IMG/VR virus record: IMGVR_UViG_3300048881_000780
From: a virus
Taxonomy: Duplodnaviria > Caudoviricetes
Direction: 5' to 3' (one strand)
DNA length: 64,000 nucleotides
Part shown: positions 2,907 to 46,970 of the stretch, in pieces
How the letters are laid out: each line of letters begins with the position of its first letter
How positions within the stretch are numbered: position 1 is the stretch's first letter
Program-made: the position numbers and the translations under genes
Notes under the pieces: generated by a model
The model's database searches: none
Told to the model about the DNA's origin: nothing
Seen by the model: only the letters and a program-made list of their open reading frames with translations

Positions 2907-2923
2907 TTAACACAACTTGTCAA
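2907..2923. promoter_or_regulatory. 17-bp palindromic operator
   Basis: TTAACACAACTTGTCAA between divergent genes. Confidence 0.8.
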
Positions 2924-2980
2924 GATTTAAATTGACACATGGCAGCAAATATAGTAAAATTTAATTATCAAGGGGAATTC

Positions 2981-4690
2981 ATGTATAGAATAGAATCAAG
3001 TTTAGAAAAAGTTGGAAAAATTACTTCTGCTAAATATAACTTAATAGTTCATTTTGAAGGCAATGATGCCTATACGAATGGTAAAGAAATATATATTCCC
3101 TATTTGGAAAATCTAACTAAAGAGAATAAAATCCTTTTAAATGGTTATATGGACCATGAAGTCGCTCACTGCTTATTTACAGACTTCTCTTGTTTAAAAG
3201 ATTGTCTCAATGAATTTCACCACAAATTACTAAATATGGTTGAGGACGTTAGAATCGAGAGACTAATGATCTATAAATACCCAGGGTGTCGTTATTTTAT
3301 CGGAAAAATGAATGAGATTCTTCAAGATAGAACTGCTAAATCTTGGGATAAAGTACCATGGCCATTTCAATTTATTTGGAATGTTGGGTTATACATGCAG
3401 GGAATTGATTATTTAGATACAACTAATTGCCAAGAATATCTAGATTTAGTTCAAGATGAATTAGCAATGTTAAATAGTGCAACTAGTACTTCTGAGTTGT
3501 TACAGATTACTAAAGCAATGACTGATAAGATTTTAGAAGATTTACCTGAAGAAAACAAACTTCCTCATAAGCCTGGGAAATCTGAGGTTGCTTACAATGA
3601 GAGAATGGAGAGAGAATCTGAAGGTGACAAAGTTGAAAATAATAGCGGTCAGAAAGGTCAAAAAAGCTCTCAAAACGGCAAAGGACAAGAAGAGAAAGAA
3701 GGGTATCAGTTACCATCGGCCCACACTTTAATTAAAGAGGCAATAGAAGAAGAAATAGAGAGAGAATCTACTTCTAACATGAATATTGTTAATGATCACT
3801 CTCTAAAATCAAGACAAAGAATTATTGCATCAACGACAAGATTTGACATTGAGACAAATTACTCTAATAAAGGTAATTCTAGTCAATACTCCACTTTTAA
3901 ATCAAAGGTTCAACCTATGATTTCTAAAATTAGAAGGGATTTTGAGAGAGTTTTAAAAGTTAAGGAGAATTCTCACTGGAAGATAGAGAGAGAACGTGGA
4001 GTTTTAAATAATCGCTCACTATCTAGGTTAATCACTGATGGTGGATATAGAACTCCATTTAAACAAAAGTTTAAAAATGACACAACTAATGTAGCGGTAC
4101 AAATTTTAATTGATCAGTCTGGTTCTATGGGTGGTTCAAGAATTGAAACCGCAAAGCTATGTGCTGTGGCCATGGGAGAGGCATTAAATGACCTTGGCAT
4201 CTCTTTTGAAATTACAGGTTTTTCTAGTCAAGGCTGTAGTAAATTAATTAGCTATACCTCTCAAGTTAAGAATAACAAGAGATTTTCAAGAACTAGAGAG
4301 GCCTTGATTTTAGATATCTTTAAAGATTTTCAAACAAGTAATTTAAATGGGATTACTCGTCTATCTTCAAAGGCCATGAACCCCGATGGGGAATGTGTTA
4401 TTTGGGCCTCAAAGAGATTATTAAAGAGAAAAGAAAAAAGAAAGATATTATTTGTTCTAAGTGATGGCCAGCCAGCTACAGGTGAGAACGATTCTGCGGT
4501 TTTATGCAATGATCTAAAGCTTGCTCTAGATGTAGTAAAAAAAGAGGGAATTGAGACTATTGGGCTAGGTATTGAAAGTGATGCTGTTTCTAAGTTTTAT
4601 AAGGATTTTATTGTTATAAATAAATTAGAAGAGCTACCAAGGAGGGCATTAAAAAAGATGACAGATATTCTACTTAGAGAGGTCGCCTAA
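2981..4690 (+). CDS. CobT-like von Willebrand factor A domain protein
   Basis: N-terminal HEVAH and EDVRIE; C-terminal MIDAS DQSGSM and LSDGQP; RBS GGGGA before ATG 2981 (track starts at 2939). Confidence 0.85.
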   Translation: MYRIESSLEKVGKITSAKYNLIVHFEGNDAYTNGKEIYIPYLENLTKENKILLNGYMDHEVAHCLFTDFSCLKDCLNEFHHKLLNMVEDVRIERLMIYKYPGCRYFIGKMNEILQDRTAKSWDKVPWPFQFIWNVGLYMQGIDYLDTTNCQEYLDLVQDELAMLNSATSTSELLQITKAMTDKILEDLPEENKLPHKPGKSEVAYNERMERESEGDKVENNSGQKGQKSSQNGKGQEEKEGYQLPSAHTLIKEAIEEEIERESTSNMNIVNDHSLKSRQRIIASTTRFDIETNYSNKGNSSQYSTFKSKVQPMISKIRRDFERVLKVKENSHWKIERERGVLNNRSLSRLITDGGYRTPFKQKFKNDTTNVAVQILIDQSGSMGGSRIETAKLCAVAMGEALNDLGISFEITGFSSQGCSKLISYTSQVKNNKRFSRTREALILDIFKDFQTSNLNGITRLSSKAMNPDGECVIWASKRLLKRKEKRKILFVLSDGQPATGENDSAVLCNDLKLALDVVKKEGIETIGLGIESDAVSKFYKDFIVINKLEELPRRALKKMTDILLREVA

Positions 4691-4881
4691 TGAATGGTCT
4701 ACAGGCCAAGGGCCTTAGTTTCTATATCTGCTTTGGTAAGTATGGTGGATTTTCATGTATTAATGACAAGGTGTCTGTTCGAGTCGTTATGGGTTTCATA
4801 TCTATTGGTGTTTTTAAAAATGATATCGAAGAAACTCTATCAAATTGTCTAGAAAGGATTTCAGAACTTAAGGATAATTAA
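4690..4881 (+). CDS. Hypothetical protein
   Basis: TAATG coupling to the vWA gene. Confidence 0.65.
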   Translation: MNGLQAKGLSFYICFGKYGGFSCINDKVSVRVVMGFISIGVFKNDIEETLSNCLERISELKDN

Positions 4882-4883
4882 CA

Positions 4884-5768
4884 ATGAATAGACCTTTTGA
4901 GTTCGTGATTGATAATAGGTTTACAAACGAAGATACTTTTGAACTATACTTATTTGAAGATATTAATTATGACTTCTCTATTGATTGGGGCGATGGATCT
5001 ATTTCCTCAATAAGTAATAATGACAAAAGCTGTTCCCACGTCTATAAAAATAAAAAAAAATATACTATTAAAATTTGGGGAAATGTAGAGGTCCTACATT
5101 TTTCTTGGAAATCTAAAAAACAAATAGTATACGTTTTAGACTTAGGTGATTGTAACTGGAAATCTTTAAATGCCATGTTTCTTTCATGTTCAAATCTTAT
5201 ATCATTTCGTGGAGGGGTTACCTCAAGTGTTGCGGATATGAGTCGAATGTTTTACAGATGTTCTTCATTACATGATTTAGATTTAAGTAGCTTTAATACT
5301 TCTAATGTGACCAATATAAATTCAATGTTCAGTGGTTGTACATCTCTAGAGAATTTAAATCTATTAAATTTTAATACATCAAATGTATTAACTATGAGTT
5401 TTGTTTTTAATAAATGTTCTTCTTTGTTGAATTTAGATTTAAGTAGTTTTAATACATCCAAGGTGACTAGCATGGATTTAATGTTTAATAGATGTACATC
5501 TTTAGATAATTTAAATCTATCTAGCTTCAATACTTTAAATGTTAGTGATATGACAGGTATGTTTAGACGTACTTTTTCAATAAAGTACCTAGATCTAACT
5601 AACTTTTGCTTTAACTCTCCAAAAATTCAAAACTTTTGTAAACTTGGCCCTAAAAAAATAATCGTCAAAAGACCATATAAGAAGAAGTATTTTAAGAAAG
5701 ATGAGAATGTATTCTCTAGTTCTATAGATATTTCTAGTAACTTATGGATAAATTCACTGACCGACTAA
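4884..5768 (+). CDS. BspA/DUF285-type LRR protein with PKD-like N-domain (~6 repeats)
   Basis: IDWGDG...H.Y...YTI.I.G; LDLSSFNTSNV..M..MF repeats; C-terminal NLWINSLTD. Confidence 0.85.
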   Translation: MNRPFEFVIDNRFTNEDTFELYLFEDINYDFSIDWGDGSISSISNNDKSCSHVYKNKKKYTIKIWGNVEVLHFSWKSKKQIVYVLDLGDCNWKSLNAMFLSCSNLISFRGGVTSSVADMSRMFYRCSSLHDLDLSSFNTSNVTNINSMFSGCTSLENLNLLNFNTSNVLTMSFVFNKCSSLLNLDLSSFNTSKVTSMDLMFNRCTSLDNLNLSSFNTLNVSDMTGMFRRTFSIKYLDLTNFCFNSPKIQNFCKLGPKKIIVKRPYKKKYFKKDENVFSSSIDISSNLWINSLTD

Positions 5769-5785
5769 AAAACCTATTTACACTC

Positions 5786-5802
5786 ATAACGCTTCGTGTT
5801 AA
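5786..5802. promoter_or_regulatory. 17-bp palindromic operator
   Basis: ATAACGCTTCGTGTTAA upstream of the AAA+ gene. Confidence 0.65.
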
Positions 5803-5822
5803 AATATTAACAAGGAGTTTCT

Positions 5823-6755
5823 ATGACAAAAAAAGCATCACCTAATAAGGTAAAAAGCACAAAAACATTTAAAATTGGAGAAGTTGAACTTCCTGTTAGA
5901 GAGGGGGATTCTACTTTTGTTCCAAAGATTAATGAGGCATTTTACTTCACAGAAGTATCGCATTGTATTGCTCAAGATATTGTTGAAAATAAGAGAGTTC
6001 TATTAACTGGTCACTGTGGAACAGGAAAGACCTCTAATCCACAGCAGATTGCTGCGAGGATTAATCAACCTGTTACTAGGATCAATTTAAATGGTCAGGC
6101 CACAATTGGTGACCTTGTAGGGTTTTGGTCTGTAAAAGGTGGTGAAACTGTTTGGATTGATGGTGCGCTCCCGATGGCAATGAAAGAGGGACACTGGTTA
6201 ATTTTAGATGAAATTGACTTCGCAGAACCAGCAATTCTCTCAATTTTAAATGGCGTACTTGAAAAAGATGCACCACTAGTTTTAAAAGAAAAAGGAACTG
6301 AGATTGTAAGACCTCATAAAGATTTTAGAATTTTTGCTACGGCCAATACCGTTGGTGTTATGCAAGAGTTTAGATTCCTATATCAGGGAGCAAATATCTT
6401 AAATGAGGCATTTATAGATAGATGGAGAATCTACTTTGTAGATTACCTAGAACCTGATCAGGAAGTAGATGTCCTGATTAAGACTCTAGGACTAGAAGAG
6501 AAGAGAGATAAGGTAGAAAAGGGTATTAGAAGTGCCGTAGAGGTCGCTAATATGGCCAGAAGAGCTTTTGAAGAAGAAACTCTATCATGTACCTTTTCTA
6601 TGCGAAAACTGACTGATTGGGTCGAATTAATGTTTAAATATAAGGATCCAATTAAGGCCTGTAATATGGCCATTAAAAGTAAAGTCAGTCGCGTTGATGG
6701 AGATGCCATTTCTTCGATCATTCAGCGTGTATTAGAAGATTGTGAACAAGATTAA
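5823..6755 (+). CDS. CbbQ/NirQ/CobS-type (MoxR clade) AAA+ ATPase
   Basis: Walker A GHCGTGKT, Walker B LILDE, FATAN sensor, AFIDRW. Confidence 0.9.
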   Translation: MTKKASPNKVKSTKTFKIGEVELPVREGDSTFVPKINEAFYFTEVSHCIAQDIVENKRVLLTGHCGTGKTSNPQQIAARINQPVTRINLNGQATIGDLVGFWSVKGGETVWIDGALPMAMKEGHWLILDEIDFAEPAILSILNGVLEKDAPLVLKEKGTEIVRPHKDFRIFATANTVGVMQEFRFLYQGANILNEAFIDRWRIYFVDYLEPDQEVDVLIKTLGLEEKRDKVEKGIRSAVEVANMARRAFEEETLSCTFSMRKLTDWVELMFKYKDPIKACNMAIKSKVSRVDGDAISSIIQRVLEDCEQD

Positions 6756-6790
6756 ATTTCCCCTCAGTGGGAAAGAAACCCCTTAAGTAG

Positions 6791-6820
6791 AGGGTCTGGC
6801 ATTACGTCAGGCCCTTTATT
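6791..6820 (+). terminator. Intrinsic terminator
   Basis: AGGGTCTGGC-ATTAC-GTCAGGCCCT followed by a T-rich tract. Confidence 0.6.
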
Positions 6821-6835
6821 TTAAAGAGTTTATAT

Positions 6836-8263
6836 ATGACAACTAGACCTTTCAAATTCAAAATTAAAGTAAATAGAGATGAGATATTCGCATTTAATTT
6901 ATCAAAAGAAGAAGTATCATATGACTTCACTATTGATTGGGGTGATGGGGTTAAAGGCTCTGTAAATAGTAAATCCTGCAAGTGTGAACATACCTATAAA
7001 AAGGGTGGCGAATTTACTATTACAATTAATGGTAATGTAGAGTCTATAAACTTCGAGAATGAGTCAAAAAGGCTGATTATAGAAGTTCTAGATTTAGGCG
7101 ATTGCAACTGGAAGAGTCTTTATTTTATGTTTGGCAATTGTTCTAACTTGACCTCATTTTCTGGTGGAATAACTAATCGAGTTGTAGATATGGCCTGTAT
7201 GTTTTACGAGGCTAGCTCTCTTAAGAGATTAGATTTATCAAGCTTTGACACCTCTAATACTCGGGATATGCAATCTATGTTTGCAGAAATCAGCTCTTTA
7301 GAGGAATTAGATATATCAAATTTTGAAACATCTAATGTGACGGATATGCGCTTTATGTTTTCAGGAGCTACCTCTCTTGAAAAATTAGATCTATCCAGTT
7401 TTGATACTTCTAAAGTAACAGATATGAGAAACATGTTTAATAGAGCTAACTCTCTAGTAAATTTAGATTTATCCAGCTTTGATACTTCTAATGTTAGAAA
7501 TATGAGCTATATGTTTAATGAATCTAGCTCACTTAAGGATTTAAATTTATCAAATTTTAATACATCTAAAGTCACGGATATGAGTCATATGTTCTATGGA
7601 TCGTGTTCATTTAAGAATTTGAATATATCAAATTTTAATACCTCTAAAGTTCAAGATATGAGTCATATGTTCTATGAAGTTAGCTCTCTAGTGGATCTAG
7701 ATTTATCCAGTTTTGACACTTCTAATGTTATAAACATGAGCTACATGTTTAGTGGAGCTACAGATTTAATAAATCTAGATATATCAAGTTTTGAAACCAC
7801 TGAAGTTGAATATATGAAATGTATGTTCCATGGAGCTAGCTCTATAGTAAGCTTAGATTTATCAAGTTTTAATACATCTAAAGTGACGAATATGAGTTAT
7901 ATGTTCTGCTACACTACCTCTTTAAGAAATTTAGATATAACTGGTTTTAGTACTTTTGAGGTAAAAGATATGAGCTTTATGTTTCATGGAGCAAGTTCTC
8001 TAGTGAATTTAGATTTATCAAATTTTGATACTTTTAATGTTTCTGACATGTCTAGTATGCTCGCTGGTGCGACATCTATTTCAAGTTTAGATTTAACAAA
8101 TTTTAACTTTGATGAAGTTGATGTGAATATGTTTGAGCTTAATGGTCCTCTAGAAATTATCGTTAAGAAGAAATTTAAAGAAAAATATTTTAAAGATAGC
8201 GAGAACGTAATATTTAAAACACTTAATTTAGTGTCCAACTCATGGATAGATGCTATTTCTTAA
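6836..8263 (+). CDS. BspA/DUF285-type LRR protein (~13 repeats of 26 aa)
   Basis: IDWGDG domain, many LDLSSFDTS.V.DM..MF repeats; C-terminal NSWIDAIS. Confidence 0.9.
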   Translation: MTTRPFKFKIKVNRDEIFAFNLSKEEVSYDFTIDWGDGVKGSVNSKSCKCEHTYKKGGEFTITINGNVESINFENESKRLIIEVLDLGDCNWKSLYFMFGNCSNLTSFSGGITNRVVDMACMFYEASSLKRLDLSSFDTSNTRDMQSMFAEISSLEELDISNFETSNVTDMRFMFSGATSLEKLDLSSFDTSKVTDMRNMFNRANSLVNLDLSSFDTSNVRNMSYMFNESSSLKDLNLSNFNTSKVTDMSHMFYGSCSFKNLNISNFNTSKVQDMSHMFYEVSSLVDLDLSSFDTSNVINMSYMFSGATDLINLDISSFETTEVEYMKCMFHGASSIVSLDLSSFNTSKVTNMSYMFCYTTSLRNLDITGFSTFEVKDMSFMFHGASSLVNLDLSNFDTFNVSDMSSMLAGATSISSLDLTNFNFDEVDVNMFELNGPLEIIVKKKFKEKYFKDSENVIFKTLNLVSNSWIDAIS

Positions 8264-8284
8264 TTTAACAACCAGGGAGATTAT

Positions 8285-8554
8285 GTGGAAAAGGAAATTC
8301 TAGTTTGGGAAGATAAGACTTATGATCAAATACCTCTTCAAGATAACCCAGCCACATGCTCTGTGGATGAATATGGAAGAATAGAATGTTTTATAATTTG
8401 TCTATCCGACTCGAAATTAGTGAAGCCAATGGTTGCACTCTATAAAGTTAATAATTTTAAAAGTGATAAGGTTACGGTCGTTAAGACTTTTCACGATTTC
8501 GAGTACGCTCTTTCTTGGGCAAAGGTCTTAAATTTTGAGGAGTCGAATAAGTAA
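8285..8554 (+). CDS. Hypothetical protein
   Basis: AGGGAG RBS, GTG start. Confidence 0.65.
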   Translation: MEKEILVWEDKTYDQIPLQDNPATCSVDEYGRIECFIICLSDSKLVKPMVALYKVNNFKSDKVTVVKTFHDFEYALSWAKVLNFEESNK

Positions 8555-9051
8555 TGGACTTTTTAAAGAAGCTTGAATTTTTAATTACTCAAAATAAAGA
8601 GAATTTACTCGATTCACATTTGAAGTATGGAGGAGTTCGAGTGACCTGTATTTCACTATCAAATGACAAGAGTTCAATAGAAGTGGAGCTAGATACTGGA
8701 TCACTAGCTTTTTCTCTAGAAGTTGATCACGAAAGTTGTTTTGAGTGTGGAAATAGTGAATTTCATGCAACTCAAGAATACCGAGTAAATATCATTGTTA
8801 ATCAGAACGGAGAGTTTTTAAGAAATAGATTTAATGATATGGAGCGATCTCTAGAAGATGCTGATGTACCCAAGGGTCCATTTAGTTGTACAAAGTGCAG
8901 TAAACAATATAGTGAAATAAAAGATGGCGCCATATTAGATAGGATGATTGAAATTACTGAAGAGAAGCTACGAGAACTAGGAGTAGGCCTCTTTAATAGT
9001 TATGATAAATTTGAAGAAGCGGTATTTAACCATGAACAAAGTAACAACTAA
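8554..9051 (+). CDS. Hypothetical protein with zinc ribbon
   Basis: CFEC...CTKC. Confidence 0.7.
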   Translation: MDFLKKLEFLITQNKENLLDSHLKYGGVRVTCISLSNDKSSIEVELDTGSLAFSLEVDHESCFECGNSEFHATQEYRVNIIVNQNGEFLRNRFNDMERSLEDADVPKGPFSCTKCSKQYSEIKDGAILDRMIEITEEKLRELGVGLFNSYDKFEEAVFNHEQSNN

Positions 9052-9691
9052 GCATACCTCTTTTGAGTTTGAAGTAAATTTATCTAGTGGTAATTTCGTT
9101 ATGTTTCATGTAGATCGAAACTTTGATTTCAAATTTAATGTTGATTGGGGTGATGGTAAGCGTAATTATTATCACCGTGAAAAAGACGCTAGTACTATAA
9201 GTCATAAGTATAGAAATAGTGGATGCTATAAAGTTAAAATATCTGGAGATATCTACAAACTTAGGTTCGGAGTAAGAACTAAGGGTTTTATAACTAGAGT
9301 TTTCAATTTAGGTGATTGTGAGTGGATTGATACATCTTCAATGTTTGAAAATTGTGAAAAACTAATGAGTTTCGCTGGTGGCGCAACTGATGAGGTGACT
9401 GATATGTCTGCAATGTTTGCTGGTTGCTTTAGTCTAGTATTATTAGACTTGAGTACTTTTAATACATCAAACGTAGTATCAATGGACAGGATGCTGGAAA
9501 AGGTTTCCTTTACTCCCCCATTAGATCTCACTTCATTTGATTTTTCTAAGTCATCATTAGATAGATTTCTATATCTTGGTCCAGGAAAAGTGTTTGTCAG
9601 TAAAGTAGTAAAAAATAAGTATTTTAAAGGAATTGATGCCGTTAAATATAAGACAGGCACCAATTCATGGATAGAATCATTAAGTAATTAA
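9032..9691 (+). CDS. Short BspA/DUF285-type LRR protein (~3 repeats)
   Basis: VDWGDG domain; C-terminal NSWIESLSN; start could be 9002. Confidence 0.8.
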   Translation: MNKVTTKHTSFEFEVNLSSGNFVMFHVDRNFDFKFNVDWGDGKRNYYHREKDASTISHKYRNSGCYKVKISGDIYKLRFGVRTKGFITRVFNLGDCEWIDTSSMFENCEKLMSFAGGATDEVTDMSAMFAGCFSLVLLDLSTFNTSNVVSMDRMLEKVSFTPPLDLTSFDFSKSSLDRFLYLGPGKVFVSKVVKNKYFKGIDAVKYKTGTNSWIESLSN

Positions 9692-9706
9692 TTTAGAACA
9701 CTCACA

Positions 9707-10225
9707 CTATTTCAGTGCTTTTAACCAGGCGTTTTCATTAGTTATTTCGATATTATTTTTTTCTTCAATGACTATCCCAAATAGATCATAGAATTCCTGA
9801 TCTGTTTGTTCATACCAACGATCTGACACAATATTTACCGTTTGATGAAATTCCTCTTCACTTGGATCTAGGTCTTTAAAATGCAACTCTTCTGGTAAAT
9901 ATTCACTGGCCCATTCAGATAGAGAATACTTATTGTCAATTCCATTGTGACAAAAGAATCCCGATTCCTCTCCGTCATCAGTATAACCAACGATATTTCC
10001 AATATATTCTAATTCCTCATTGATAGCGTTAATTACTCTATGAAAGTTTCTCCATTGGTCCATATCAATATGAGAAATTTCTGCTTTTATATCAAAGATA
10101 AGATCTTTATTTTTAGGTAATGGTGACTCTTTTCTAAACCAATTTGTTATAATCTCTCTTGCTCGATCATACGAATATTGGTCTTTAAATTGGATTTTTC
10201 CATTCCAGTAACTATATCTTGCCAT
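9707..10225 (-). CDS. Hypothetical protein, family B
   Basis: Paralog of 31592 and 11217 (W.G...F.D..S...A); C-terminal NAWLKALK. Confidence 0.75.
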   Translation of the reverse strand: MARYSYWNGKIQFKDQYSYDRAREIITNWFRKESPLPKNKDLIFDIKAEISHIDMDQWRNFHRVINAINEELEYIGNIVGYTDDGEESGFFCHNGIDNKYSLSEWASEYLPEELHFKDLDPSEEEFHQTVNIVSDRWYEQTDQEFYDLFGIVIEEKNNIEITNENAWLKALK

Positions 10226-10237
10226 AAATACCTTTAT

Positions 10238-11203
10238 TTAATTAAGAGAGTTCAGCCATGCATTTTCTTTTGATGCTACATACTCCCGATATTTTATATT
10301 TTCATATTCTTTGAAATATAATTTTTTATATCTTTTTTTTACAATTATTTCACTTGGACCATTTTCGCAGAAGGCCTCTAAGTTTCCATTATCAAATGAG
10401 AATCCGTATAAATCTAAACTAATTAAAGAGTTTGTACCTCTTAACATCTGGCGAAAATCCGCAACTCTGTCTGTAATGAAACTTGATAAATTTAAGCTCC
10501 CAAGAGCTCTAGTTTTGCAAAACATACTGTTCATATTGGTAACGCTGGAAGTATCAAATTTTGATAAATCTAAACTCGTTAGAGAGTGGGCATCATGAAA
10601 CATGTAACTCATATCTAAGACATTGGAAGTGTTGAAGCTAGAAAGATCTAAATCAACGAGTGAGTATGTATCACAAAACATGTATCTCATATTGGTGACA
10701 GATGAAGTGTTAAATGATGATAAATCTATTTTTGCAATCGAGTATATATCGCAAAACATATGGCTCATATTTGTAACAGACGACGTATCAAATGACGATA
10801 AATCTATTTTTACAAGTGATTTTGCATTAACGAACATATGACTCATGTCGGTAACATTTTTTGTTACCCCTCCCGCCAATGAGGTTAAGTTGTAACAACT
10901 AGAAAACATCTTATTAAAACTAGTCCAATTACAGTCACCTAAGTCTATGACTTCTAAAATACAAGGTCTTGACTCATTTTTAAAATTTATTGATCCGATA
11001 TCTCCCGTAATTTTTATAGTGTACTCTCCCTCTTTGTCATATAGATGGTTACAATTAAGGGAGCCTTTGTATCCTGTTTGACTGATATTTCCATCTCCCC
11101 ACTCAACAAAGAGGAATTTCTTATCATCACTTGAGTTTTCTATAGAAAAAGAGAAAGACTTTAGTTTATCTATTTTTATTTTAAATATAAATGGTTTTTT
11201 CAT
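10238..11203 (-). CDS. BspA/DUF285-type LRR protein (~7 repeats)
   Basis: VEWGDG domain, LRR repeats; C-terminal NAWLNSLN. Confidence 0.85.
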   Translation of the reverse strand: MKKPFIFKIKIDKLKSFSFSIENSSDDKKFLFVEWGDGNISQTGYKGSLNCNHLYDKEGEYTIKITGDIGSINFKNESRPCILEVIDLGDCNWTSFNKMFSSCYNLTSLAGGVTKNVTDMSHMFVNAKSLVKIDLSSFDTSSVTNMSHMFCDIYSIAKIDLSSFNTSSVTNMRYMFCDTYSLVDLDLSSFNTSNVLDMSYMFHDAHSLTSLDLSKFDTSSVTNMNSMFCKTRALGSLNLSSFITDRVADFRQMLRGTNSLISLDLYGFSFDNGNLEAFCENGPSEIIVKKRYKKLYFKEYENIKYREYVASKENAWLNSLN

Positions 11204-11216
11204 ATTAATTTACTTC

Positions 11217-11741
11217 CTATTTTAGAGACTGAAGCCAAGAGTTAATTTTAGTATCCCTGTTTATTTCAAGGAAGTCTTTTTCATTTAGATTTAACCAGTG
11301 GTCAATAATTTCTTCTTTTATACTTTTAATTTCACTCTCGCTCTTTTTAAAACTCAGATTTAACCCCTTAGTTCTTCCCCATTTTTTAAGGTGACAAGTT
11401 TTGTATTGACCGTTAAAGATTATATTTCCTTGAAAAATATTCATCTCTTTTCTATTGCAAACGCTTTTTATAAAATGACTGTCACTTAGAGTGATTATTT
11501 TTTTCAGCGAGTTTTTAAATTTTTGAATATTTTTAAGAAAGTTTTTATCGCGACTATTTAGTTTTTTAATTTCCATTCCTAAATTAAATATATACTCATT
11601 ATTTAATTCCATTGTATGAATATTACTAACTAAAGATGAATCAAAATTATCCCTGAATATAGATACGGCCATATCTAATTTCTTTTTCGATATAAATCTC
11701 AGAATTCCTGTGTATACATACTTTGAATCTACATTATTCAT
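11217..11741 (-). CDS. Hypothetical protein, family B (divergent)
   Basis: YTGILRF...AVS; C-terminal NSWLQSLK. Confidence 0.7.
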   Translation of the reverse strand: MNNVDSKYVYTGILRFISKKKLDMAVSIFRDNFDSSLVSNIHTMELNNEYIFNLGMEIKKLNSRDKNFLKNIQKFKNSLKKIITLSDSHFIKSVCNRKEMNIFQGNIIFNGQYKTCHLKKWGRTKGLNLSFKKSESEIKSIKEEIIDHWLNLNEKDFLEINRDTKINSWLQSLK

Positions 11742-11750
11742 AAATAAATA

Positions 11751-11767
11751 TTAACACATATTGTCAA
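11751..11767. promoter_or_regulatory. 17-bp palindromic operator
   Basis: TTAACACATATTGTCAA. Confidence 0.8.
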
Positions 11768-17875: not shown

Positions 17876-19249
17876 ATGAAGAAAACGGTGTCCAATATTG
17901 TATTTAAATGTCTTTTTAAGTTTATGCATTCTCATGGCGTGGATGAAGAAAAACTATTATTAGGAACTGACCTAGAAAAGAGAGACTTTAATAACTTACT
18001 ATCTCGTCAAACTTGGGATACCTATCTTCGGGTATTAGATAATCTAGAGCCATTCTTAGATGATCAGGCCATTGACGAAATTGGACTATACGGAGTAACT
18101 GGACGAGAGTACCAGAAATTAACAAATATCGTATCTGGAATCTTTTCAACTAAGTTACTATATTGGGCCCAATCGAAATTCATGGGCAATTACTTATTTA
18201 ATAATATTAAGTTCGAGTATAAAAAGGATAGTCGAAATTTAGTTTCCTTAGAAATGAGTGTAGAGGGAGAGCCACCGCCGATGTTCTTTTGGAAAGGATA
18301 CGTATCTGTTTATCGGCATTTTCCAAAAATATTCGACAACACTCTATCTTCTAAAGTGGTTCTAACTAAAGTAGATAGTAATACGGCCAGATTTTTAATC
18401 TCCCCTCCAATTCATCAAAGTATTTTTAAGAGGGTTTTATTAACACTGTCTGCACCCTTTAGAGCGAGCAATACTGTTGAACTTCTATCAGAGTTAGAAC
18501 AAAGTAAGCGAGAAGTTTCCGAGTTAAATATGCTCTTATCAGATAAACTTAATGATAAAAGTATTCAGCTTATGTCCCTATCGCACGACCTTTCAAATCC
18601 TCTTTTTATTATAACGGGACTAAAAAAGAGAATCGATCGAGCAAAGAGTTTAGAAGAAGTTAAAGGTTATATAGAGAGCATAAATTCTCATGCCACTATC
18701 ATGGCACATACGATAAAGCAGACTAGAAGTTTTCTAGAAAAAGAAAATAATGGTTATAAGAAGTGTCCTATTTCAATGAAGAAGCTAATTGATGACTCTA
18801 TTCAGTTAACGCAAGCTAGAGCAGATAAAAAAGAAATTGAGCTGAAGATTAATGTAGTTGACTCTACAATTTTAGGTGACGAGAGTGCTATCTCTTGTTC
18901 GGTTATAACTAATATTATAACTAATGCCATAAAATTTTCTAATACAGGTGGGACTATAGAAATTAATAGTTACCCCAAGTATCATGATGCCATTCTTGAG
19001 GTTATAGATTTTGGTACAGGGATGGATGAAGAAACAAGAAAGAGAATTCAAAATGGGGACAAAGTTATTTCCAAAGAAGGTACTGTAAAGGAGCAGGGTT
19101 CAGGCTTTGGAATGATGATAGCTAAGAATATAATTGAAAAATTTGACGGAACCATGCATATTGAAACTAACGAGAATATCGGAACAAAATTTACAATTGT
19201 ATGGCCACAAGCTATGCAACATCTTTCAAATCTTCACCCTTCGATGTAG
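17876..19249 (+). CDS. Soluble sensor histidine kinase
   Basis: SHDLSNPL, NIITNAIKF, DFGTG, GSGFG; no TM segment. Confidence 0.9.
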   Translation: MKKTVSNIVFKCLFKFMHSHGVDEEKLLLGTDLEKRDFNNLLSRQTWDTYLRVLDNLEPFLDDQAIDEIGLYGVTGREYQKLTNIVSGIFSTKLLYWAQSKFMGNYLFNNIKFEYKKDSRNLVSLEMSVEGEPPPMFFWKGYVSVYRHFPKIFDNTLSSKVVLTKVDSNTARFLISPPIHQSIFKRVLLTLSAPFRASNTVELLSELEQSKREVSELNMLLSDKLNDKSIQLMSLSHDLSNPLFIITGLKKRIDRAKSLEEVKGYIESINSHATIMAHTIKQTRSFLEKENNGYKKCPISMKKLIDDSIQLTQARADKKEIELKINVVDSTILGDESAISCSVITNIITNAIKFSNTGGTIEINSYPKYHDAILEVIDFGTGMDEETRKRIQNGDKVISKEGTVKEQGSGFGMMIAKNIIEKFDGTMHIETNENIGTKFTIVWPQAMQHLSNLHPSM

Positions 19250-21079: not shown

Positions 21080-21430
21080 ATGATTAAAGTAATTAGAACT
21101 CTTGTTTTGGGTTACGATCAAGATAGCGACTCATTTTATCTAAAAGGTAGAGATATAAATAAAAGTTTAAAAAGAATTGATCTAGAGGAAACTGATCAAA
21201 TAAGTAAGCTTATAGAAGAATATTCCAAAGATTTTCACATTAATACATCTTCTTCTCTTCATGAATTAGTACTATCAAAGAAAGATCTACTCTGGAGTGC
21301 AGAAGGAATTCTTTTAAATAAAAAGAATCTTAAATATAATAGGTCCAAAAAGCACTATGACTATCATTTACTGAGTAAAGTTATAAACTTTAAAAAAGAT
21401 AATAATGGATACTTTCATATGATCATTTAA
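21080..21430 (+). CDS. Hypothetical protein
   Basis: ORF with RBS. Confidence 0.65.
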   Translation: MIKVIRTLVLGYDQDSDSFYLKGRDINKSLKRIDLEETDQISKLIEEYSKDFHINTSSSLHELVLSKKDLLWSAEGILLNKKNLKYNRSKKHYDYHLLSKVINFKKDNNGYFHMII

Positions 21431-21496
21431 AATGAAATCAATGTAGATGATGTTAACTAATTTAGTAATCAGGAATAAGAAGAGGTAATCGATACT

Positions 21497-21877
21497 ATGA
21501 ATGATAAAAAGCTAAATGATCTAGCTTGTAACTCTCCTGCTTCTCTTGCAGAGTACATCCAATCTGATAATATTAAAAGTTTAACTAAAGCTATGGCCAT
21601 TGTCGCGCTAGGAGAAAGGGTTTATCCAAGTTATTTTAATTTCTTAAAAAACTATATTTCTGATAAAGAGGATATTGTTAGAGAGTTAGCTTTTAGAGCG
21701 CTCTCTTTTTATTATACTGAGTGTAATAACGGACAATATGATTACCTTTTAGCGGAATTTAGAGAAAGATTGCAGACTGAAAAGGCCCCTGGAGTTAGAA
21801 GACGTCTAGAGTCTCTAATAAAATTTATGCAAAAGTATGAAGATCTAGATAACTTTAATAAATTCTCAACCAGTTAA
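21497..21877 (+). CDS. HEAT-repeat-like protein (paralog of 48997)
   Basis: AIVALGER...VRELAFRAL. Confidence 0.65.
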   Translation: MNDKKLNDLACNSPASLAEYIQSDNIKSLTKAMAIVALGERVYPSYFNFLKNYISDKEDIVRELAFRALSFYYTECNNGQYDYLLAEFRERLQTEKAPGVRRRLESLIKFMQKYEDLDNFNKFSTS

Positions 21878-21892
21878 CAATTAAGGAAAATC

Positions 21893-21909
21893 TTAACGAC
21901 TTGCGTTAA
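21893..21909. promoter_or_regulatory. 17-bp palindromic operator
   Basis: TTAACGACTTGCGTTAA. Confidence 0.8.
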
Positions 21910-21948
21910 AATCTAAATCATGGTAAACTTTATACAAGCGAGGTTATT

Positions 21949-22182
21949 ATGATTGAAAGAGAAGTTATTAATTCAAACAATAATGTATCACTAATTAAAG
22001 AAAACCATGAAGATGAATTCTGCTACGTTGTAGAAATCATCGGTACAGATAACTCTAAGAGTTTCTTTGATTGTGGTGAATCAAAAAATAAGGCCTCTGA
22101 TTTATACGATAAATTATCAAGTATTTCATACAGTAAGAGTGTGGATGTTAAGATGAGTGAAAACTCTCATCTTGTGGCATAA
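21949..22182 (+). CDS. Hypothetical protein
   Basis: GAGG RBS. Confidence 0.65.
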   Translation: MIEREVINSNNNVSLIKENHEDEFCYVVEIIGTDNSKSFFDCGESKNKASDLYDKLSSISYSKSVDVKMSENSHLVA

Positions 22183-22258
22183 GTTATTAAATGAGCGCAA
22201 AAGAGAATATTCTTAAAATAGCAACTAATAGCGTGATCTAAAAGACTGGGAGTAAGAA

Positions 22259-22480
22259 ATGGAAGAATTAGATTATTACCAACGAAAATATGACCTCGAT
22301 GTCGAAATGTCTCATTTTAGTGAGTTCTCATCTCTTAAAGGTGTTATATCGGTTGAAGGTGATACATTCTTTGCTACTGTAGGCGAAGGAGATGCTCAGT
22401 GTATTGGATCTGGAAGCACTAGGGCACACGCACTTGTAGACTGTATGAATAATTTTTGGACAGAGAAAGCTAAAGCTTAA
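22259..22480 (+). CDS. Hypothetical protein
   Basis: GGGAG RBS. Confidence 0.65.
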   Translation: MEELDYYQRKYDLDVEMSHFSEFSSLKGVISVEGDTFFATVGEGDAQCIGSGSTRAHALVDCMNNFWTEKAKA

Positions 22481-22901
22481 TGATGCGACCCTTCTCTCTT
22501 TTAAAGTATTTATCAAAATCTGGAAACTTTCCTCTGATATTTGATAAGTGAGTGCTTAATAACTGTCCTGAAAGTGGCAAGTGAATATCATCTTCGTCCT
22601 TGCTTAATGCCACTTTCAATATTCTTATTTCATTATTTGTGAATTTTATTAACTCGCTCTTATACTTTAGGGTTTTATTATCAACGTCTAAAATCATTCT
22701 CTTATACTTAATTATTGGAGATCCCTTTTTTACCAAGTCAGATATTTCATTAATTTCTAAAAGCAGTGAGTTCTTTGTGCTCTTCTTTAGTTCGGTAGAA
22801 TTTTTTATTGCAAAGGATAACTTCTTTAGTTTTGAATCTAAGTTACTTTTATTATTCTTATTCTCTATGGTGGAAACTAATACTCCCCTATCTTTTATCA
22901 T
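22470..22901 (-). CDS. Protein with an OmpR/PhoB-type winged-helix domain and no receiver domain
   Basis: LDVDNKTL....IKFT..E.RIL..L...THLSNIRGK. Confidence 0.6.
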   Translation of the reverse strand: MIKDRGVLVSTIENKNNKSNLDSKLKKLSFAIKNSTELKKSTKNSLLLEINEISDLVKKGSPIIKYKRMILDVDNKTLKYKSELIKFTNNEIRILKVALSKDEDDIHLPLSGQLLSTHLSNIRGKFPDFDKYFKREKGRIIKL

Positions 22902-23076
22902 CGAAAAACTCCTTATATAAATAATATCTAATCAAAGGCATAAATCAAATAGAAATCACTTAAGAAATCTTAAGTGAATAATTCTTGCAACTTGCCGTAA
23001 TATAAGAGGAAAATTAGATATATTGAGGCCTAAATAAATTAATGTTAGTATCTCTATATTAGAAGAAGGAGTTTTT

Positions 23077-23973
23077 ATGAGTTTTAAAAAGTTTTTATCA
23101 TATTTTTTTCAATATCTATTTGTCTTAATTATTGTTGTAACCCCTTTTGGTGCTCAAGAGACTCCAAGTATTAAATATATACTACTATTGCTCATTCCCA
23201 TGTTGATTATGTCACCTCACCTAATTTCTAAATTAGAGTCAAAGTTGAAACTCAATATTAAGACCAAGCATAGAGTAATTGTTTCAATGATTCTCTACTC
23301 TACTTTTAGCTCATTTATTATTAACGAAGATGCTAATAGAAGAGAAATTGCTAAGGAGAGTCAAGATCGTGAAGATTTTACAAAAAATAAAAAAGAAAAA
23401 TTAGATTATATTAAAAGGTTAAACTCTCAAAAGAAATATGATCGTGCATTAGTTGTAATTAAAGAATATGAAAAATTTAATGATGACGATGTAAAGAAAC
23501 TAAGAAGAGAGTTGAATTCAAAAATTAGAAAAAGAGATATTAAAAAATTAGATAAACTTGCTAGAAGTACAAGTTCAAAACAACCAAAGCTTCTACTTGA
23601 TACATATAGAAAGCTTTTAAAGCTCGATCCTCAAAATAAGAGATACAAGAAGAAAGTAGCCCATTATCAAGAAGTGGTAGATAAAATCATTATGGAAAAG
23701 AGATTAGCAGATGTTCGAGCAAAGAAGATTTCTAATCAGTTCAGTGGTTGGGATGGCGCCCATATAAAATTAGAGAGACTGGTTAAAGAAAATCTAAAAG
23801 ACCCTGATTCTTACGAACACGTAAAGAGTCTATATAATGATCACAAAACGTATTTAATAGTAGAACTTACTTATAGGGCCAAGAATAGTTTTGGTGCAAA
23901 GGTTCTTGGTAGCGTTCAAGCAAAAGTTGATATTAATTCAGGTACAGTATTAAAAATAATTAATCAAAAGTAA
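23077..23973 (+). CDS. Membrane protein
   Basis: N-terminal TM helices; C-terminal LKDPDSY...YRAKNSFGA domain. Confidence 0.75.
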   Translation: MSFKKFLSYFFQYLFVLIIVVTPFGAQETPSIKYILLLLIPMLIMSPHLISKLESKLKLNIKTKHRVIVSMILYSTFSSFIINEDANRREIAKESQDREDFTKNKKEKLDYIKRLNSQKKYDRALVVIKEYEKFNDDDVKKLRRELNSKIRKRDIKKLDKLARSTSSKQPKLLLDTYRKLLKLDPQNKRYKKKVAHYQEVVDKIIMEKRLADVRAKKISNQFSGWDGAHIKLERLVKENLKDPDSYEHVKSLYNDHKTYLIVELTYRAKNSFGAKVLGSVQAKVDINSGTVLKIINQK

Positions 23974-24540
23974 CTAAATCAGGGACTTGATCCAAGGGTT
24001 ATCAGGTCCCACTTTAAAAGGGCCCGAACTCTCTCTATTTTCAAAACCAAAGATATTATCCAATTCGCTCCATTTGATATTTTTAATAACTTCACTAACC
24101 ATGACCATTTTATCTCTCATACCTACTGACATTAGAAAGTCTTCTTTTGATATAGTGAAATCTAGTTTTTTCTGTTTCTTGCACTCATTTGGTGATAATT
24201 TTCTATAGAAGTAAATTAAGTTCGTTTCTCTGTAAAAGGCAATAACTTGTGCACTCGATAGCCTGTTAAATGCAAATAAATCTGCCAATACTCGGATGAG
24301 ATTATCACATGACTCAAATATTTTATCTGAAGAATCCATTAGCCCAATTTTTTCATATGCATCCGAATGGATTATCTTACAAACTTCTGCAAGATCAATT
24401 ATCATTTTATCAGTATCTACCTGATAAGAAATTCCAAGTTCTCTATTTAAATAATTTCGATCATCAAAAAGATCGTTAAGATTGGAATATTTAAAATGTC
24501 CTTTTATATGTAAAATACTCACTATAGCTCCCCTTTTCAT
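23974..24540 (-). CDS. Hypothetical protein carrying the shared C-terminal motif
   Basis: Ends NPWIKSLI. Confidence 0.7.
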   Translation of the reverse strand: MKRGAIVSILHIKGHFKYSNLNDLFDDRNYLNRELGISYQVDTDKMIIDLAEVCKIIHSDAYEKIGLMDSSDKIFESCDNLIRVLADLFAFNRLSSAQVIAFYRETNLIYFYRKLSPNECKKQKKLDFTISKEDFLMSVGMRDKMVMVSEVIKNIKWSELDNIFGFENRESSGPFKVGPDNPWIKSLI

Positions 24541-24563
24541 AATTATATCACATTAGTTAAATA

Positions 24564-24592
24564 TTGACAAATTGCGTTAATACATATATTAT
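24564..24592 (+). promoter_or_regulatory. Promoter with embedded operator
   Basis: TTGACA-17-TATTAT; TTGACAAATTGCGTTAA at 24564-24580. Confidence 0.85.
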
Positions 24593-24607
24593 AAAAAAGA
24601 GGTTTCT

Positions 24608-24940
24608 ATGTTAAATTCTAAAAGTATAAAAAATGCTAAAGTAATTGATCGTCTAATTGCCTATGATGGAATTTGTTCATCATATTTAATCGATGGTTCT
24701 TACTATGTGTCACATTTCTATAATCAAGATAGTAAATTCTATTATGACTACTATTTTAAAGCTTCTAAGAGTTTAATTGATGAGCTTAAAGAGGAGCAGA
24801 TAGATTTTAAGACTTTTATAGAGTCAGCTAGTGAAATTTATAAGGTGAGATTCTGCATCAAATTAAAAGAGTATCTCGTAGATAAAATTTCAATATCTGA
24901 TCTTGGGAATTTTATGCCACAGGCCGGAGAGTATCTATAA
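24608..24940 (+). CDS. Hypothetical protein
   Basis: GAGG RBS; coupled to the MTase. Confidence 0.7.
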   Translation: MLNSKSIKNAKVIDRLIAYDGICSSYLIDGSYYVSHFYNQDSKFYYDYYFKASKSLIDELKEEQIDFKTFIESASEIYKVRFCIKLKEYLVDKISISDLGNFMPQAGEYL

Positions 24941-25827
24941 TGCAATCTATTGCGACTAGAATTTATCTCATGGCCAGAAAGAATGGAAATCAATTTAAGA
25001 TATCGGATATCTACAAATACTTCCCAAAAAACAAAAGAGAGACTGTTAGAGCTAGAGTTTACACTAATTTAGGTTCGCTCTTTGAAAAGGTTTCTAGAGG
25101 CGTATACTGTATAAAAAGAAATGAAAATAGCGCTCTACTAATTAATGGAGACGGCAGAGATTTATCAAGTATTCCGGATGCTTCCATTGATGCCATTATT
25201 ACTGATCACCCATGGGTAGATAATTTAGCGCTCAAGGGTACTAGAAAAAATATGGCCAAGTACGATGGGTTTTTATATGAATTTGAAGATTTCTTAGAAA
25301 AGTATCGAGTACTAAAAGATGGATCCTTTTTAATTGAGAACTTACCTCAAGAGAGTGAAACAAATTTTGAATATCTCCATCAGATCAAGAAAATGGCAAT
25401 TAAAGCTGGTTTTAAGTTTTGGTGTGTCACAGTTTGGAAAAAAGGTAAACTAGTTCACAACACGGGAAGAGTTGCTAAGAATAAAGAATTCCTATATTTC
25501 TTCACTAAGGGAAAGGCCAGAAAATTAAGAGTCAATAAGAATACGAGACAATCTGATTTAATGTCAGGGACAACTCAAATAGTCCCATGTGAACTTAATT
25601 TTCAACCAGCTTCTCCAAAGAATAAAAAACACCAGGCCGAGAAGCCAATTGAATTACTCAAGGCACTTATCGAATTGGTTACCAATAAAGGCGAATTGGT
25701 TTTAGATCAATTTGCAGGCAGTTTTAATATTGTAGATGCCTGTCTTGAGACACAGAGAGATTGCATCGCAATAGAGATCAATGAAGAATTCTTTAATAGA
25801 TACACAAGAGAGAAAGAGGCCAGCTAA
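24940..25827 (+). CDS. Beta-class N4-C/N6-A DNA methyltransferase with N-terminal winged-helix-like extension
   Basis: IITDHPW (motif IV variant), H.AEKP..LL, VLDQFAGS. Confidence 0.85.
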   Translation: MQSIATRIYLMARKNGNQFKISDIYKYFPKNKRETVRARVYTNLGSLFEKVSRGVYCIKRNENSALLINGDGRDLSSIPDASIDAIITDHPWVDNLALKGTRKNMAKYDGFLYEFEDFLEKYRVLKDGSFLIENLPQESETNFEYLHQIKKMAIKAGFKFWCVTVWKKGKLVHNTGRVAKNKEFLYFFTKGKARKLRVNKNTRQSDLMSGTTQIVPCELNFQPASPKNKKHQAEKPIELLKALIELVTNKGELVLDQFAGSFNIVDACLETQRDCIAIEINEEFFNRYTREKEAS

Positions 25828-33068: not shown

Positions 33069-33965
33069 TTACTCTCCTTTTGAATGTTTTTTGATTACTT
33101 CATTAATAATTGTATTTTCTAGTAAGTCTCTCTTACTCTTAGATTCACAGGTACAAGAGTCGAGATCCTCTCCTACTTTCATTTTACAATCTGAGTCATG
33201 CCAATTCTTTTTAATGGACAGTACTCTATGGGCCTCAATTAGTAATTTTTCTAAATCGTAGATGATATCGTTTTTCTCTTGAGACTGATGACAAAATGTC
33301 GTCGCAGACTTTCTCTCTCTTTGATAATCTTCTCTTAGTTTAGTAATTTCTTGCTCTTTCTCATTGAGTTTAAATTTCATCTGTTGATGTTTATACATCC
33401 AGCCTTGCATAAATGGAGATCCATATTTTTCATGATTTCCATACTTAATATGCTTATCAGCAAACTCAAGCGCAGAAGTATCTTCAATTTCTTTGTACTT
33501 AGAGATATTACAAACACACTCTTTTGCTAGAGAACGATTACACCTTTTACAAATTGTTTCTTGAGATACCTTTATAACTTTATGATTATGTTTTCTAGAG
33601 GTATTAACTGTATTTTCTACATCTATATATTCACTACTTTCTATCTCTTCTTGTAAAGAGGAGAGTTTTTGTGATAGTTCTTCAATTTTGGATTTATCTT
33701 CAGAGCTTTCAAGACATGAGCGACATATACTATTGTCTACCCCAACACTACCACCACTAGATGGGTCAAATAGAGAGTCGCATGAATCGCAGGATGCTAG
33801 TTTATCGTAATCTTTTTCTAAATACTTCCATGCATAACGACTACCCTCTTCAAGTATTTTAGTTATAAGCTCTTTTGGTATTTTTGTTTCTCCTACTCTA
33901 AATAAGTCAATATCAATTGGCATATCTTGAGATTTAAACCACTCTTTAAAATTAGGTCTCTTCAT
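33069..33965 (-). CDS. Coiled-coil / Cys-containing hypothetical protein
   Basis: Likely start MKRPNF at 33965 (track starts at 34013). Confidence 0.7.
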   Translation of the reverse strand: MKRPNFKEWFKSQDMPIDIDLFRVGETKIPKELITKILEEGSRYAWKYLEKDYDKLASCDSCDSLFDPSSGGSVGVDNSICRSCLESSEDKSKIEELSQKLSSLQEEIESSEYIDVENTVNTSRKHNHKVIKVSQETICKRCNRSLAKECVCNISKYKEIEDTSALEFADKHIKYGNHEKYGSPFMQGWMYKHQQMKFKLNEKEQEITKLREDYQRERKSATTFCHQSQEKNDIIYDLEKLLIEAHRVLSIKKNWHDSDCKMKVGEDLDSCTCESKSKRDLLENTIINEVIKKHSKGE

Positions 33966-34194
33966 TGTTATCTCTTTGTGAGGCAAATCTTTGATCACCT
34001 TTTTTTGGTTCAATACTGAATTTAAGAGTTGTTATATCATAACCTCTAGCTTCTAATACTCTGGCCATATCTTCAGTAATGAATCCAGATAAAAATCCGG
34101 CATCGCTCTTAGTTTGACTCCCTAGCGGGAAGTGGTATGAGACGGTGTCATCCTTTTTACTCCAGGTCGCTCTTAATTTATCCTTTGCTTTCAT
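33952..34194 (-). CDS. Hypothetical protein
   Basis: AGGAG RBS; ARGYDITTLKFSI motif. Confidence 0.65.
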   Translation of the reverse strand: MKAKDKLRATWSKKDDTVSYHFPLGSQTKSDAGFLSGFITEDMARVLEARGYDITTLKFSIEPKKGDQRFASQRDNNEET

Positions 34195-38053: not shown

Positions 38054-38851
38054 TTAAGATAGATCCCTCTTTTTAAGCTCTTGAATAATCTCTCTATTTT
38101 GATCAATTATTATATTATTTTGCTTAACCACATAGTCGTTATTGTCCATAGTAAAAACATCAGTAATTGAGGCAACTAAAATTGCAACTCCAAATATTCC
38201 AAGTGTTAAAAGCTGAAAAGAGAACCACACAAGAGTTAAAAATGGATAGTTTGAACTCTCCATAATCTTTTCTGTTAACTCAAATCCCTCACCCATGATG
38301 AGCTTCTGAAGGGCCAAGATACTACTGGTCATATCTGAAAACTCTTCAATGTCACTATAATAAGTATTATTAATTAAACCAAATATTAAAAAGAGAAATG
38401 AGATTATTAGAATAATACCCATTGAAGTTTTTATAGCTTTGTATAGAGACTTCATTATGTGATCAAGATTTGGGATAAAACTAAGTATCCTAAGGAGCCT
38501 TATTAATCTAAATAATATAACAAAAGTTGGGCTATTTAATTCCTTTAAAAAGAAAGTAAATATTATAAAAGTCACTAGAGATACAACAACGATTGTAAAA
38601 TCAAATTTATTCCAGTGATCATCCCAGAACTTAGAAAACCCGTCTCTAAAACTACAACTGCAAGTCATATATTGCTTAACACTAAAAAAAATCTCTAGGC
38701 TAAATAGTCCAATAAAGAATGTCTCTAGAGTTATTAATTGTGAGTTATTTATGACCTGAAATCCATTTAAAATGACCAGAATACTATTAATGATAATTAA
38801 CCATATTATGGCAACTTCATTTAATAGAATCTTCTCCAATTTCTTTATCAT
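38054..38851 (-). CDS. 6-TM voltage-gated-type ion channel (bacterial NaV-like)
   Basis: WNKFDF..V; S4 FRLIRLLRILSFIP; S5-pore-S6; C-terminal coiled coil. Confidence 0.8.
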   Translation of the reverse strand: MIKKLEKILLNEVAIIWLIIINSILVILNGFQVINNSQLITLETFFIGLFSLEIFFSVKQYMTCSCSFRDGFSKFWDDHWNKFDFTIVVVSLVTFIIFTFFLKELNSPTFVILFRLIRLLRILSFIPNLDHIMKSLYKAIKTSMGIILIISFLFLIFGLINNTYYSDIEEFSDMTSSILALQKLIMGEGFELTEKIMESSNYPFLTLVWFSFQLLTLGIFGVAILVASITDVFTMDNNDYVVKQNNIIIDQNREIIQELKKRDLS

Positions 38852-46765: not shown

Positions 46766-46970
46766 AGTTACCATTGAATTTGATGATGAAGAAATGGCCA
46801 GCGCCTTTGTCGCGAACTTACTCGATGGCGGAGGGGGTCAACTTCTATGTGATTTTAACGAAAAAACAAATGAGCTTGAGTACTTTGATTTTGATAGTGA
46901 TAATTCAATAAAAGATAATAACGGACGCTATAAGACTTTAAGATATAGAAGAGCAAGTGAGGATAAGTAA
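46755..46970 (+). CDS. Hypothetical protein
   Basis: GTG after GAGG. Confidence 0.55.
   Translation: MSTKVTIEFDDEEMASAFVANLLDGGGGQLLCDFNEKTNELEYFDFDSDNSIKDNNGRYKTLRYRRASEDK

Follow-up and report, generated by a model that had tools for sequence, protein, structure and literature searches.

A DNA stretch of 64,000 nucleotides, IMG/VR virus record IMGVR_UViG_3300048881_000780 (Duplodnaviria; Caudoviricetes), was analysed and is referred to here as the window. It is part of a 361,129-bp contig, has a G + C content of about 32%, and all statements below on shared genes cover the visible 64 of 361 kb. Open reading frame (ORF) calls and Pfam matches revealed a locus near its left end (Table 1), in which a CobT-like gene encoding a von Willebrand factor A (vWA) domain is followed by a 63-aa ORF, a DUF285 leucine-rich repeat (LRR) gene, a CobS-like AAA+ ATPase gene, a second LRR gene, two ORFs and a third LRR gene. 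After the third LRR gene lie a gene of a family designated B, another LRR gene and a second family B gene, all on the opposite strand and convergent on the preceding genes. The same calls and matches bear out the gene order, from vWA to family B, given in an initial annotation made from the sequence alone. The CobT-63-aa ORF-LRR genes and the CobS-LRR-ORF-ORF-LRR genes are each co-directional and closely spaced, and each set is located behind an operator-bearing promoter. DUF285 (PF03382) repeats were found in five window proteins with E-values from 2e-08 to 7e-79, which places these proteins in the DUF285/BspA type of LRR.

The CobS-like ATPase has intact Walker A (GTGKT) and Walker B (ILDEID) motifs, and the residues G-x-x-G-x-G-K-[TS] and D-E are invariant in 24 homologues, as is characteristic of CobS/MoxR-type AAA_5 proteins. 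It is 49-59% identical to members of a very large clade, matches PHROG 249 at 3e-55, and found 4,609 matching records in PLSDB; proteins of IncC-type plasmids are about 31% identical to it across 90% of its length. Comparison with the PDB gave E-values of 2e-39 for Brucella CobS (9ujv) and 5e-86 for the Midasin rings. True Brucella CobS is more remote from the ATPase than the members of its own clade.

The CobT-like protein consists of an M48-like zincin N-domain (HEVAH...EDVRIE), a disordered linker and a vWA domain with a metal ion-dependent adhesion site (MIDAS; DQSGSM...SDG). A profile of its family matches Brucella CobT (9uka) over the whole length (E-value 3e-60), its N-domain matches PHROG 459 'peptidase' at 7e-13, and the MIDAS residues DQSGSM and SDG are conserved among its homologues, so that the domain layout is that of CobT. 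An AlphaFold2 (AF2) model had a mean predicted local distance difference test (pLDDT) score of 72, with about 85-90 in the N-domain, a disordered linker at residues 195-241, then long helices and the vWA domain, for which the best structural matches were NorD and the MIDAS domain of Rea1.

The N-terminal HExxH (HEVAH) noticed in the initial annotation is real. It is located at residue 73, numbered from the start at 2939, and the signature LDHE[VA]AHC...ED.R.E was found intact in every phage- or plasmid-like CobT homologue examined. The degenerate zincin of true CobT was not found in the window protein, which reads HEVAH...EDVRIE where 9uka has LGDSMALRQARH. The intact HExxH places the window CobT in a distinct subfamily, possibly a protease-competent one. 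In about 22 chromosomal CobT-like proteins of Paraburkholderia, Caballeronia and Trinickia, HExxH is replaced (LDLLVARAKHS); this count refers to metagenomic pairs (L010-L056), with the loci of named isolates (L197-L276) outside it. The ATPases of these chromosomal Burkholderiales pairs are 51-55% identical to the window CobS. On the chromosomes of these three genera (L010-L056, L197-L276) the CobS/CobT-like pair is vertically conserved and stands alone in an ordinary context.

No CobN or other cob gene was found among the scanned ORFs of the 64-kb window. Pfam and profile matches establish the CobS/CobT-like pair that the initial annotation had recognised, and no cobalamin context is visible around it in the 64 kb. 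Judged by its sequence, the region encodes a mobile-element CobS/CobT-like machine, with a predicted ring-forming AAA+ motor and a zincin/linker/vWA adaptor.

A search of 106 selected window ORFs (18,205 residues) for the motif N-x-W-[IL]-x-[SA]-[IL] found exactly 10 occurrences. All 10 were C-terminal, with one or two residues between the motif and the stop codon, and there was no internal copy, compared with 0.04 occurrences expected from composition anywhere and 0.0005 at C-termini. The shared tail is real and far beyond chance. It is carried by five DUF285 and three family B proteins, one DnaJ-type zinc-finger protein and one orphan, from at least four unrelated families, and each of the ten combines a variable body with the conserved terminal peptide. 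The LRR proteins had been described as variable bodies with a common tail, and indeed their DUF285 bodies differ while the C-terminal motif is common. Also as described, six of the ten tails are located within 2981-11741 (binomial P = 8e-4). These six belong to four DUF285 paralogues and two family B paralogues in tandem, so duplication inflates the clustering, which is no independent evidence of linkage.

The AF2 model of a family B carrier (9707-10225) has a core with pLDDT of 65-90, followed by residues 155-172 at below 50, of which residues 166-169 form a short helix. A search of 1.8 billion representatives returned nineteen family B relatives, and those outside the element end directly after the core domain, with neither linker nor tail. 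Linker and tail are therefore an add-on made in this element. The family B fold gave no convincing structural match (best Z 4.4), and the C-terminal 70 residues of the LRR protein encoded at 4884-5768 had no relative among 5.8 billion proteins except itself. The most fitting reading of the tail is that of a portable peptide for docking, a C-terminal amphipathic helix on a flexible linker; the AF2 model shows a short terminal helix after a low-confidence linker.

Because the element has no close relatives in the collections, other CobS-bearing elements were followed instead. Shared tails, or tags, were detected by a best-seed neighbour count and compared with internal-segment controls of the same proteins. 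Contig L002, with a CobS 53% identical to that of the window, encodes within 10 kb 11-18 small and mostly unrelated proteins that end with [VI]-D-[VM]-x-x-L-L-K-x-[LI]. A second set of tags came from an uncultured phage lineage of about 110 kb, represented by the complete genomes G002, G003 and G004 and the fragments L001, L084 and L085: at least 12 proteins of G002 end with F-x-x-[AG]-L-x-x-L, 7-9 of G003 with F-M-x-[ED]-L-x-x-I, and 7 of G004 with D-[FIM]-[ILM]-x-E-L-x-x-L. Tag counts were well above the internal-segment controls (at most 4) for G002, G003 and L002; that of G004 was borderline (5-6 versus a control of at most 5), although the set is coherent by inspection. A z-value from pairwise scores was too insensitive as a detector (z = 1.2 for G004) and was dropped for the neighbour count. 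The C-terminal helix of CobT itself was considered as a tag and rejected, since in the alignment it corresponds to the final helix of the vWA domain in true CobT.

In blastp comparisons, CobS and CobT were the only proteins in common between the window and L002 or these phages, and L002 likewise shares only CobS/CobT with the phage lineage. One pattern recurs in all these tails, that of the window included: an aromatic or aliphatic residue is combined with one that is small or acidic and with L at i+3 and i+4, always at the same short spacing from the carboxylate. The best support for the docking idea is that two other lineages have only this CobS/CobT subclade in common with the visible 64 kb and that each has related tags of its own. 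A literature search found no report of C-terminal tags shared among proteins of CobS/CobT-bearing elements.

Docking of the tail on the CobS/CobT motor is a plausible candidate interaction, for which several known machines serve as comparison. Rea1/Midasin and NorQ-NorD likewise combine an AAA_5 ring with a MIDAS domain, and Midasin is the strongest PDB sequence match to the window ATPase. Clients that otherwise differ are bound by the Rea1 MIDAS through a single shared module, a UBL domain, and the same principle is proposed here; Rea1 recognises a folded domain, whereas the common module of the window would be a C-terminal helix of 7-9 residues. A variable target-binding body joined to a short conserved C-terminal docking element is also known from SspB, with its XB motif that binds ClpX, and from F-box and PRANC adaptors. 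These differ in that the window tails have no sequence relation to them, would act on a different machine and have a putative partner. The window pair resembles CobNST (9ujv, 9uka) in that an AAA_5 and CbbQ_C ATPase is paired with a protein of M48-like N-domain, linker and vWA-MIDAS; it differs in having no visible CobN or cobalamin genes, in forming a separate clade that is 49-59% identical within itself, and in its HExxH, which is degenerate in true CobT. In the CobSTN complex, CobT has the motor on one side and the client CobN on the other; its M48C-like domain CobT_N holds the small domain of CobS, the C-terminal helix of CobS docks on CobT_N, and CobN lies between CobT_N and the vWA domain with its terminal helices close to the MIDAS (bioRxiv 10.64898/2026.07.21.739949).

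Among mobile-element relatives, functional data exist only for vcrx089-090 of IncC plasmids, where the AAA_5/CbbQ_C ATPase Vcrx089 and Vcrx090 together guard plasmid DNA entering the recipient against type I and some type II restriction (PMC7498323, PMC11602122). The vcrx089-vcrx090 pair of IncC and SXT-R391 shares with the window a mobile-element AAA_5 and CbbQ_C ATPase. The window locus differs from the IncC host-defence-evasion (hde) module, whose ATPase gene shares an operon with ssb-bet-exo, in that a Pfam scan found no SSB, RecT or YqaJ gene there, and LRR genes are interleaved instead.

We propose that tail-tagged DUF285 LRR genes were inserted into the two transcription units of the machine and amplified in tandem alongside. 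By way of the tail, its carriers would be tethered to the CobT/CobS machine; their variable LRR bodies would serve as exchangeable modules for binding targets, and the motor would remodel or cleave these targets, which are probably proteins of host defence, restriction enzymes for example. The tagged proteins may instead be clients of the machine themselves. CobS/CobT is the best single candidate for the tail reader, a tentative assignment that falls short of a finding. The broader proposal, that the phage and plasmid CobS/CobT clade with a live zincin recruits unrelated proteins against host defences through element-specific C-terminal helix tags, with LRRs and other small domains as swappable binders, we regard as rather doubtful.

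Several results weigh against CobS/CobT as the reader. Tandem duplication alone can explain the local clustering of tails, and the proximity of tags to CobS/CobT in the window (P = 0.002) involves those tandem paralogues; four of the ten window tags are located 7-55 kb away. Judged by median distance, the tagged genes of G002-G004 show no more proximity to CobS/CobT than genes picked at random (P = 0.6-0.8). The complete phage G012 belongs to the G002 lineage and has an intact CobS/CobT, and it shows no coherent tag set. The neighbour count detected no tag set in most other CobS/CobT-bearing phages (RHEph10, SSU5, ICP2, CRP-810 and G006-G011), two further carriers of the pair, nickie and G013, have tails of other kinds, and the approximately 22 chromosomal Burkholderiales pairs have no tags within 10 kb. 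Tags were found in 4-5 of about 16 lineages with CobS/CobT versus none of five without the pair, a difference that is not significant, and every tagged lineage was retrieved through CobS, which makes for ascertainment bias. The five phages without the pair gave no tag set, T4 being borderline. In the G002 lineage no relative without CobS/CobT was found, the pair being present in 4/4 complete genomes and the remaining contigs being fragments; single-protein queries with NAD ligase and ATP ligase for control loci in IMG/VR gave nothing useful.

The adaptor system suggested by the initial annotation is partly supported: tags in two other CobS/CobT lineages, the tight gene layout and an HExxH that is intact in mobile-element CobT but lost in the tagless chromosomal pairs speak for it, and the dispersed tags and the tagless G012 against it. 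One half of what that annotation named as counting against it was observed, as the pair occurs without tails in G012, in the approximately 22 Burkholderiales loci and in several cultured phages.

The dispersal of tagged genes in the phage genomes and the many CobS/CobT-bearing elements without tags also fit another explanation, in which the reader of the tail is a conserved hub of the host, for instance a chaperone, a protease or a replication or division protein. CobS/CobT would then act independently, for example in anti-restriction, and the LRR genes would merely have landed and been duplicated nearby. A universal partner would further account for similar helical tags across hosts of very different G + C content (32% in the window versus 41-52% in the phages). 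Yet the tags vary more than a universal pocket suggests, with W, F or V at the aromatic position and a variable end, and the three tagged lineages all carry one CobS/CobT subclade. To our knowledge, the tail matches no familiar host-hub motif; its helical i, i+1, i+4 spacing is unlike the extended clamp-binding QL[SD]LF. Taking both sides together, we consider a host hub unlikely.

The reader could also be another machine encoded by the element, for example the coupling protein of a type IV secretion system (T4SS), with the tail directing the export or transfer of LRR effectors. T4SS substrates typically carry their signals at the C-terminus, and the LRR proteins, in whose sequences no signal peptides were seen, would depend on a route other than Sec if their site of action is outside the cell. 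Such a signal would be charge-biased and disordered, whereas the tag is short and fixed, and its N and W are invariant. Closely similar tags are present in tailed phages with capsid and tail genes, whose overlap with the visible 64 kb is confined to CobS/CobT; conjugation genes were not noticed in the tagged phages, although no search was aimed at them, and no T4SS gene was seen in the 64-kb window. Such an element-encoded reader seems quite improbable. Least likely of all, and by a low estimate, is that the tail is a membrane-targeting amphipathic helix that holds its carriers at the inner membrane with no protein reader: the tail lies at the C-terminus, is short and has an amphipathic character, W/F and L/I sharing one face, and several window and G002 tails recall the C-termini of FtsA and MinD, which are helices of this kind, but the net charge of the window tails ranges from -1 to +2, those of G004 are acidic (DFIEELSKL, DILAELDQL), and the invariance of N, W and the small residue speaks for specific recognition where membrane helices tolerate wide variation.

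If CobS/CobT does read the tail, the element would encode a bacterial counterpart of F-box or SspB-type adaptor systems, which would be new biology and would explain why unrelated proteins of one element end alike. CobS/CobT-like pairs are present on thousands of plasmids and many phages, and one relative shields incoming plasmid DNA from restriction; tags that recruit clients or adaptors would explain the substrates of the motor, and its partners in any element could then be found by a sequence rule. If the link to CobS/CobT is wrong, the tag would still mark a hub on which several phage and plasmid lineages depend.

A sigma-70-like promoter and an operator-like palindrome precede the CobT-like gene, and the position of this promoter makes the ATG at 2981 a likelier CobT start than the one at position 2939. 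A promoter-like site with an embedded palindrome precedes the CobS-like gene, and a further palindrome is located upstream of the outer family B gene (Table 1). The palindrome TTAACAC-N3-GTGTTAA (with at most 3 mismatches) has 29 copies in the window versus 4.9 expected, three on promoters of the CobS/CobT-LRR locus and 26 at other window sites. Since it is shared window-wide, the locus appears to form about three units within the general regulon of the element and no private one.

Table 1. Genes and regulatory sites of the CobS/CobT-LRR locus, in window coordinates, and positions of a lysine-rich protein gene in other contigs
Feature	Position	Strand	Evidence or remark
Operator-like palindrome	2907-2923	+	Ahead of CobT-like gene
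Sigma-70-like promoter	2932-2960	+	TTGACA-17-TAAAAT, 11/12 consensus matches; ahead of CobT-like gene
CobT-like adaptor	2939/2981-4690	+	CobT_C PF11775 5.7e-27, VWA (Pfam)
63-aa ORF, no tail, no family	4690-4881	+	Start overlaps CobT stop
DUF285/BspA-type LRR, 294 aa, ends NLWINSLTD	4884-5768	+	Pfam DUF285 5e-30
Promoter-like site	5777-5805	+	Embedded operator-like palindrome 5786-5802; ahead of CobS-like gene
CobS-like AAA+ ATPase	5823-6755	+	AAA_5 PF07728 3.2e-23, CbbQ_C PF08406 4.2e-06
DUF285 LRR, 475 aa, ends NSWIDAIS	6836-8263	+	DUF285 7e-79
Untagged ORF, 89 aa, no family	8285-8554	+	
Untagged ORF, 165 aa, CxxC pairs, no family	8554-9051	+	
Short DUF285 LRR, 229 aa, ends NSWIESLSN	9002-9691	+	Pfam DUF285
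Family B, 172 aa, ends NAWLKALK	9707-10225	-	
DUF285 LRR, 321 aa, ends NAWLNSLN	10238-11203	-	Pfam DUF285
Family B, 174 aa, ends NSWLQSLK	11217-11741	-	
Operator-like palindrome	11751-11767		Upstream of outer family B gene (11217-11741, -)
Lysine-rich protein	L084 3154-3852; L001 3860-4483; L041 6319-6966; L073 5689-6306; L007 6195-6854 (-)		

Other sets of C-termini that resemble one another were seen in phage genomes. In the CobS/CobT-bearing Pseudomonas phage nickie (NC_042091; L143-L148), five or six unrelated proteins end with Ar-G-x-[FW]-[AG] (Ar, aromatic), such as ENFGSWA, EGFGAFA and SGWGAFG (e.g. 93121-93513, 93510-93926 and 46773-47546), a class that differs from the helical tail. 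Eight or nine small proteins of the IMG/VR phage G013 (L308-L313; tailed genes at 21198-24945, 33472-34157 and 104954-105406) end with A-x-V-R-[CLS]-[IV]-x, which could be a shared tag or could reflect remote paralogues with a common last strand. Phage T4 (L188-L196) showed a weak excess of C-termini like ..[YF]-F-[KE], with 8 neighbours versus at most 5 in the internal controls. The C-termini of cyanophage clamp loaders (KTFLRGLEV) were dismissed as tags, as these are single conserved genes.

tRNA genes were also searched for, and none was found in the 64-kb window. Elsewhere in the window, a histidine kinase is encoded at 17876-19249 (+) and an Ion_trans-type cation channel at 38054-38851 (-). 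In the G002 phage lineage, a lysine-rich protein of about 205-235 aa with no family match adjoins an ATP-dependent ligase upstream of CobS (Table 1), and its acidic C-terminal tip, D-[DE]-L-[DE]-x-I-L-G, is present in all phages of the lineage, including the tag-poor G012.

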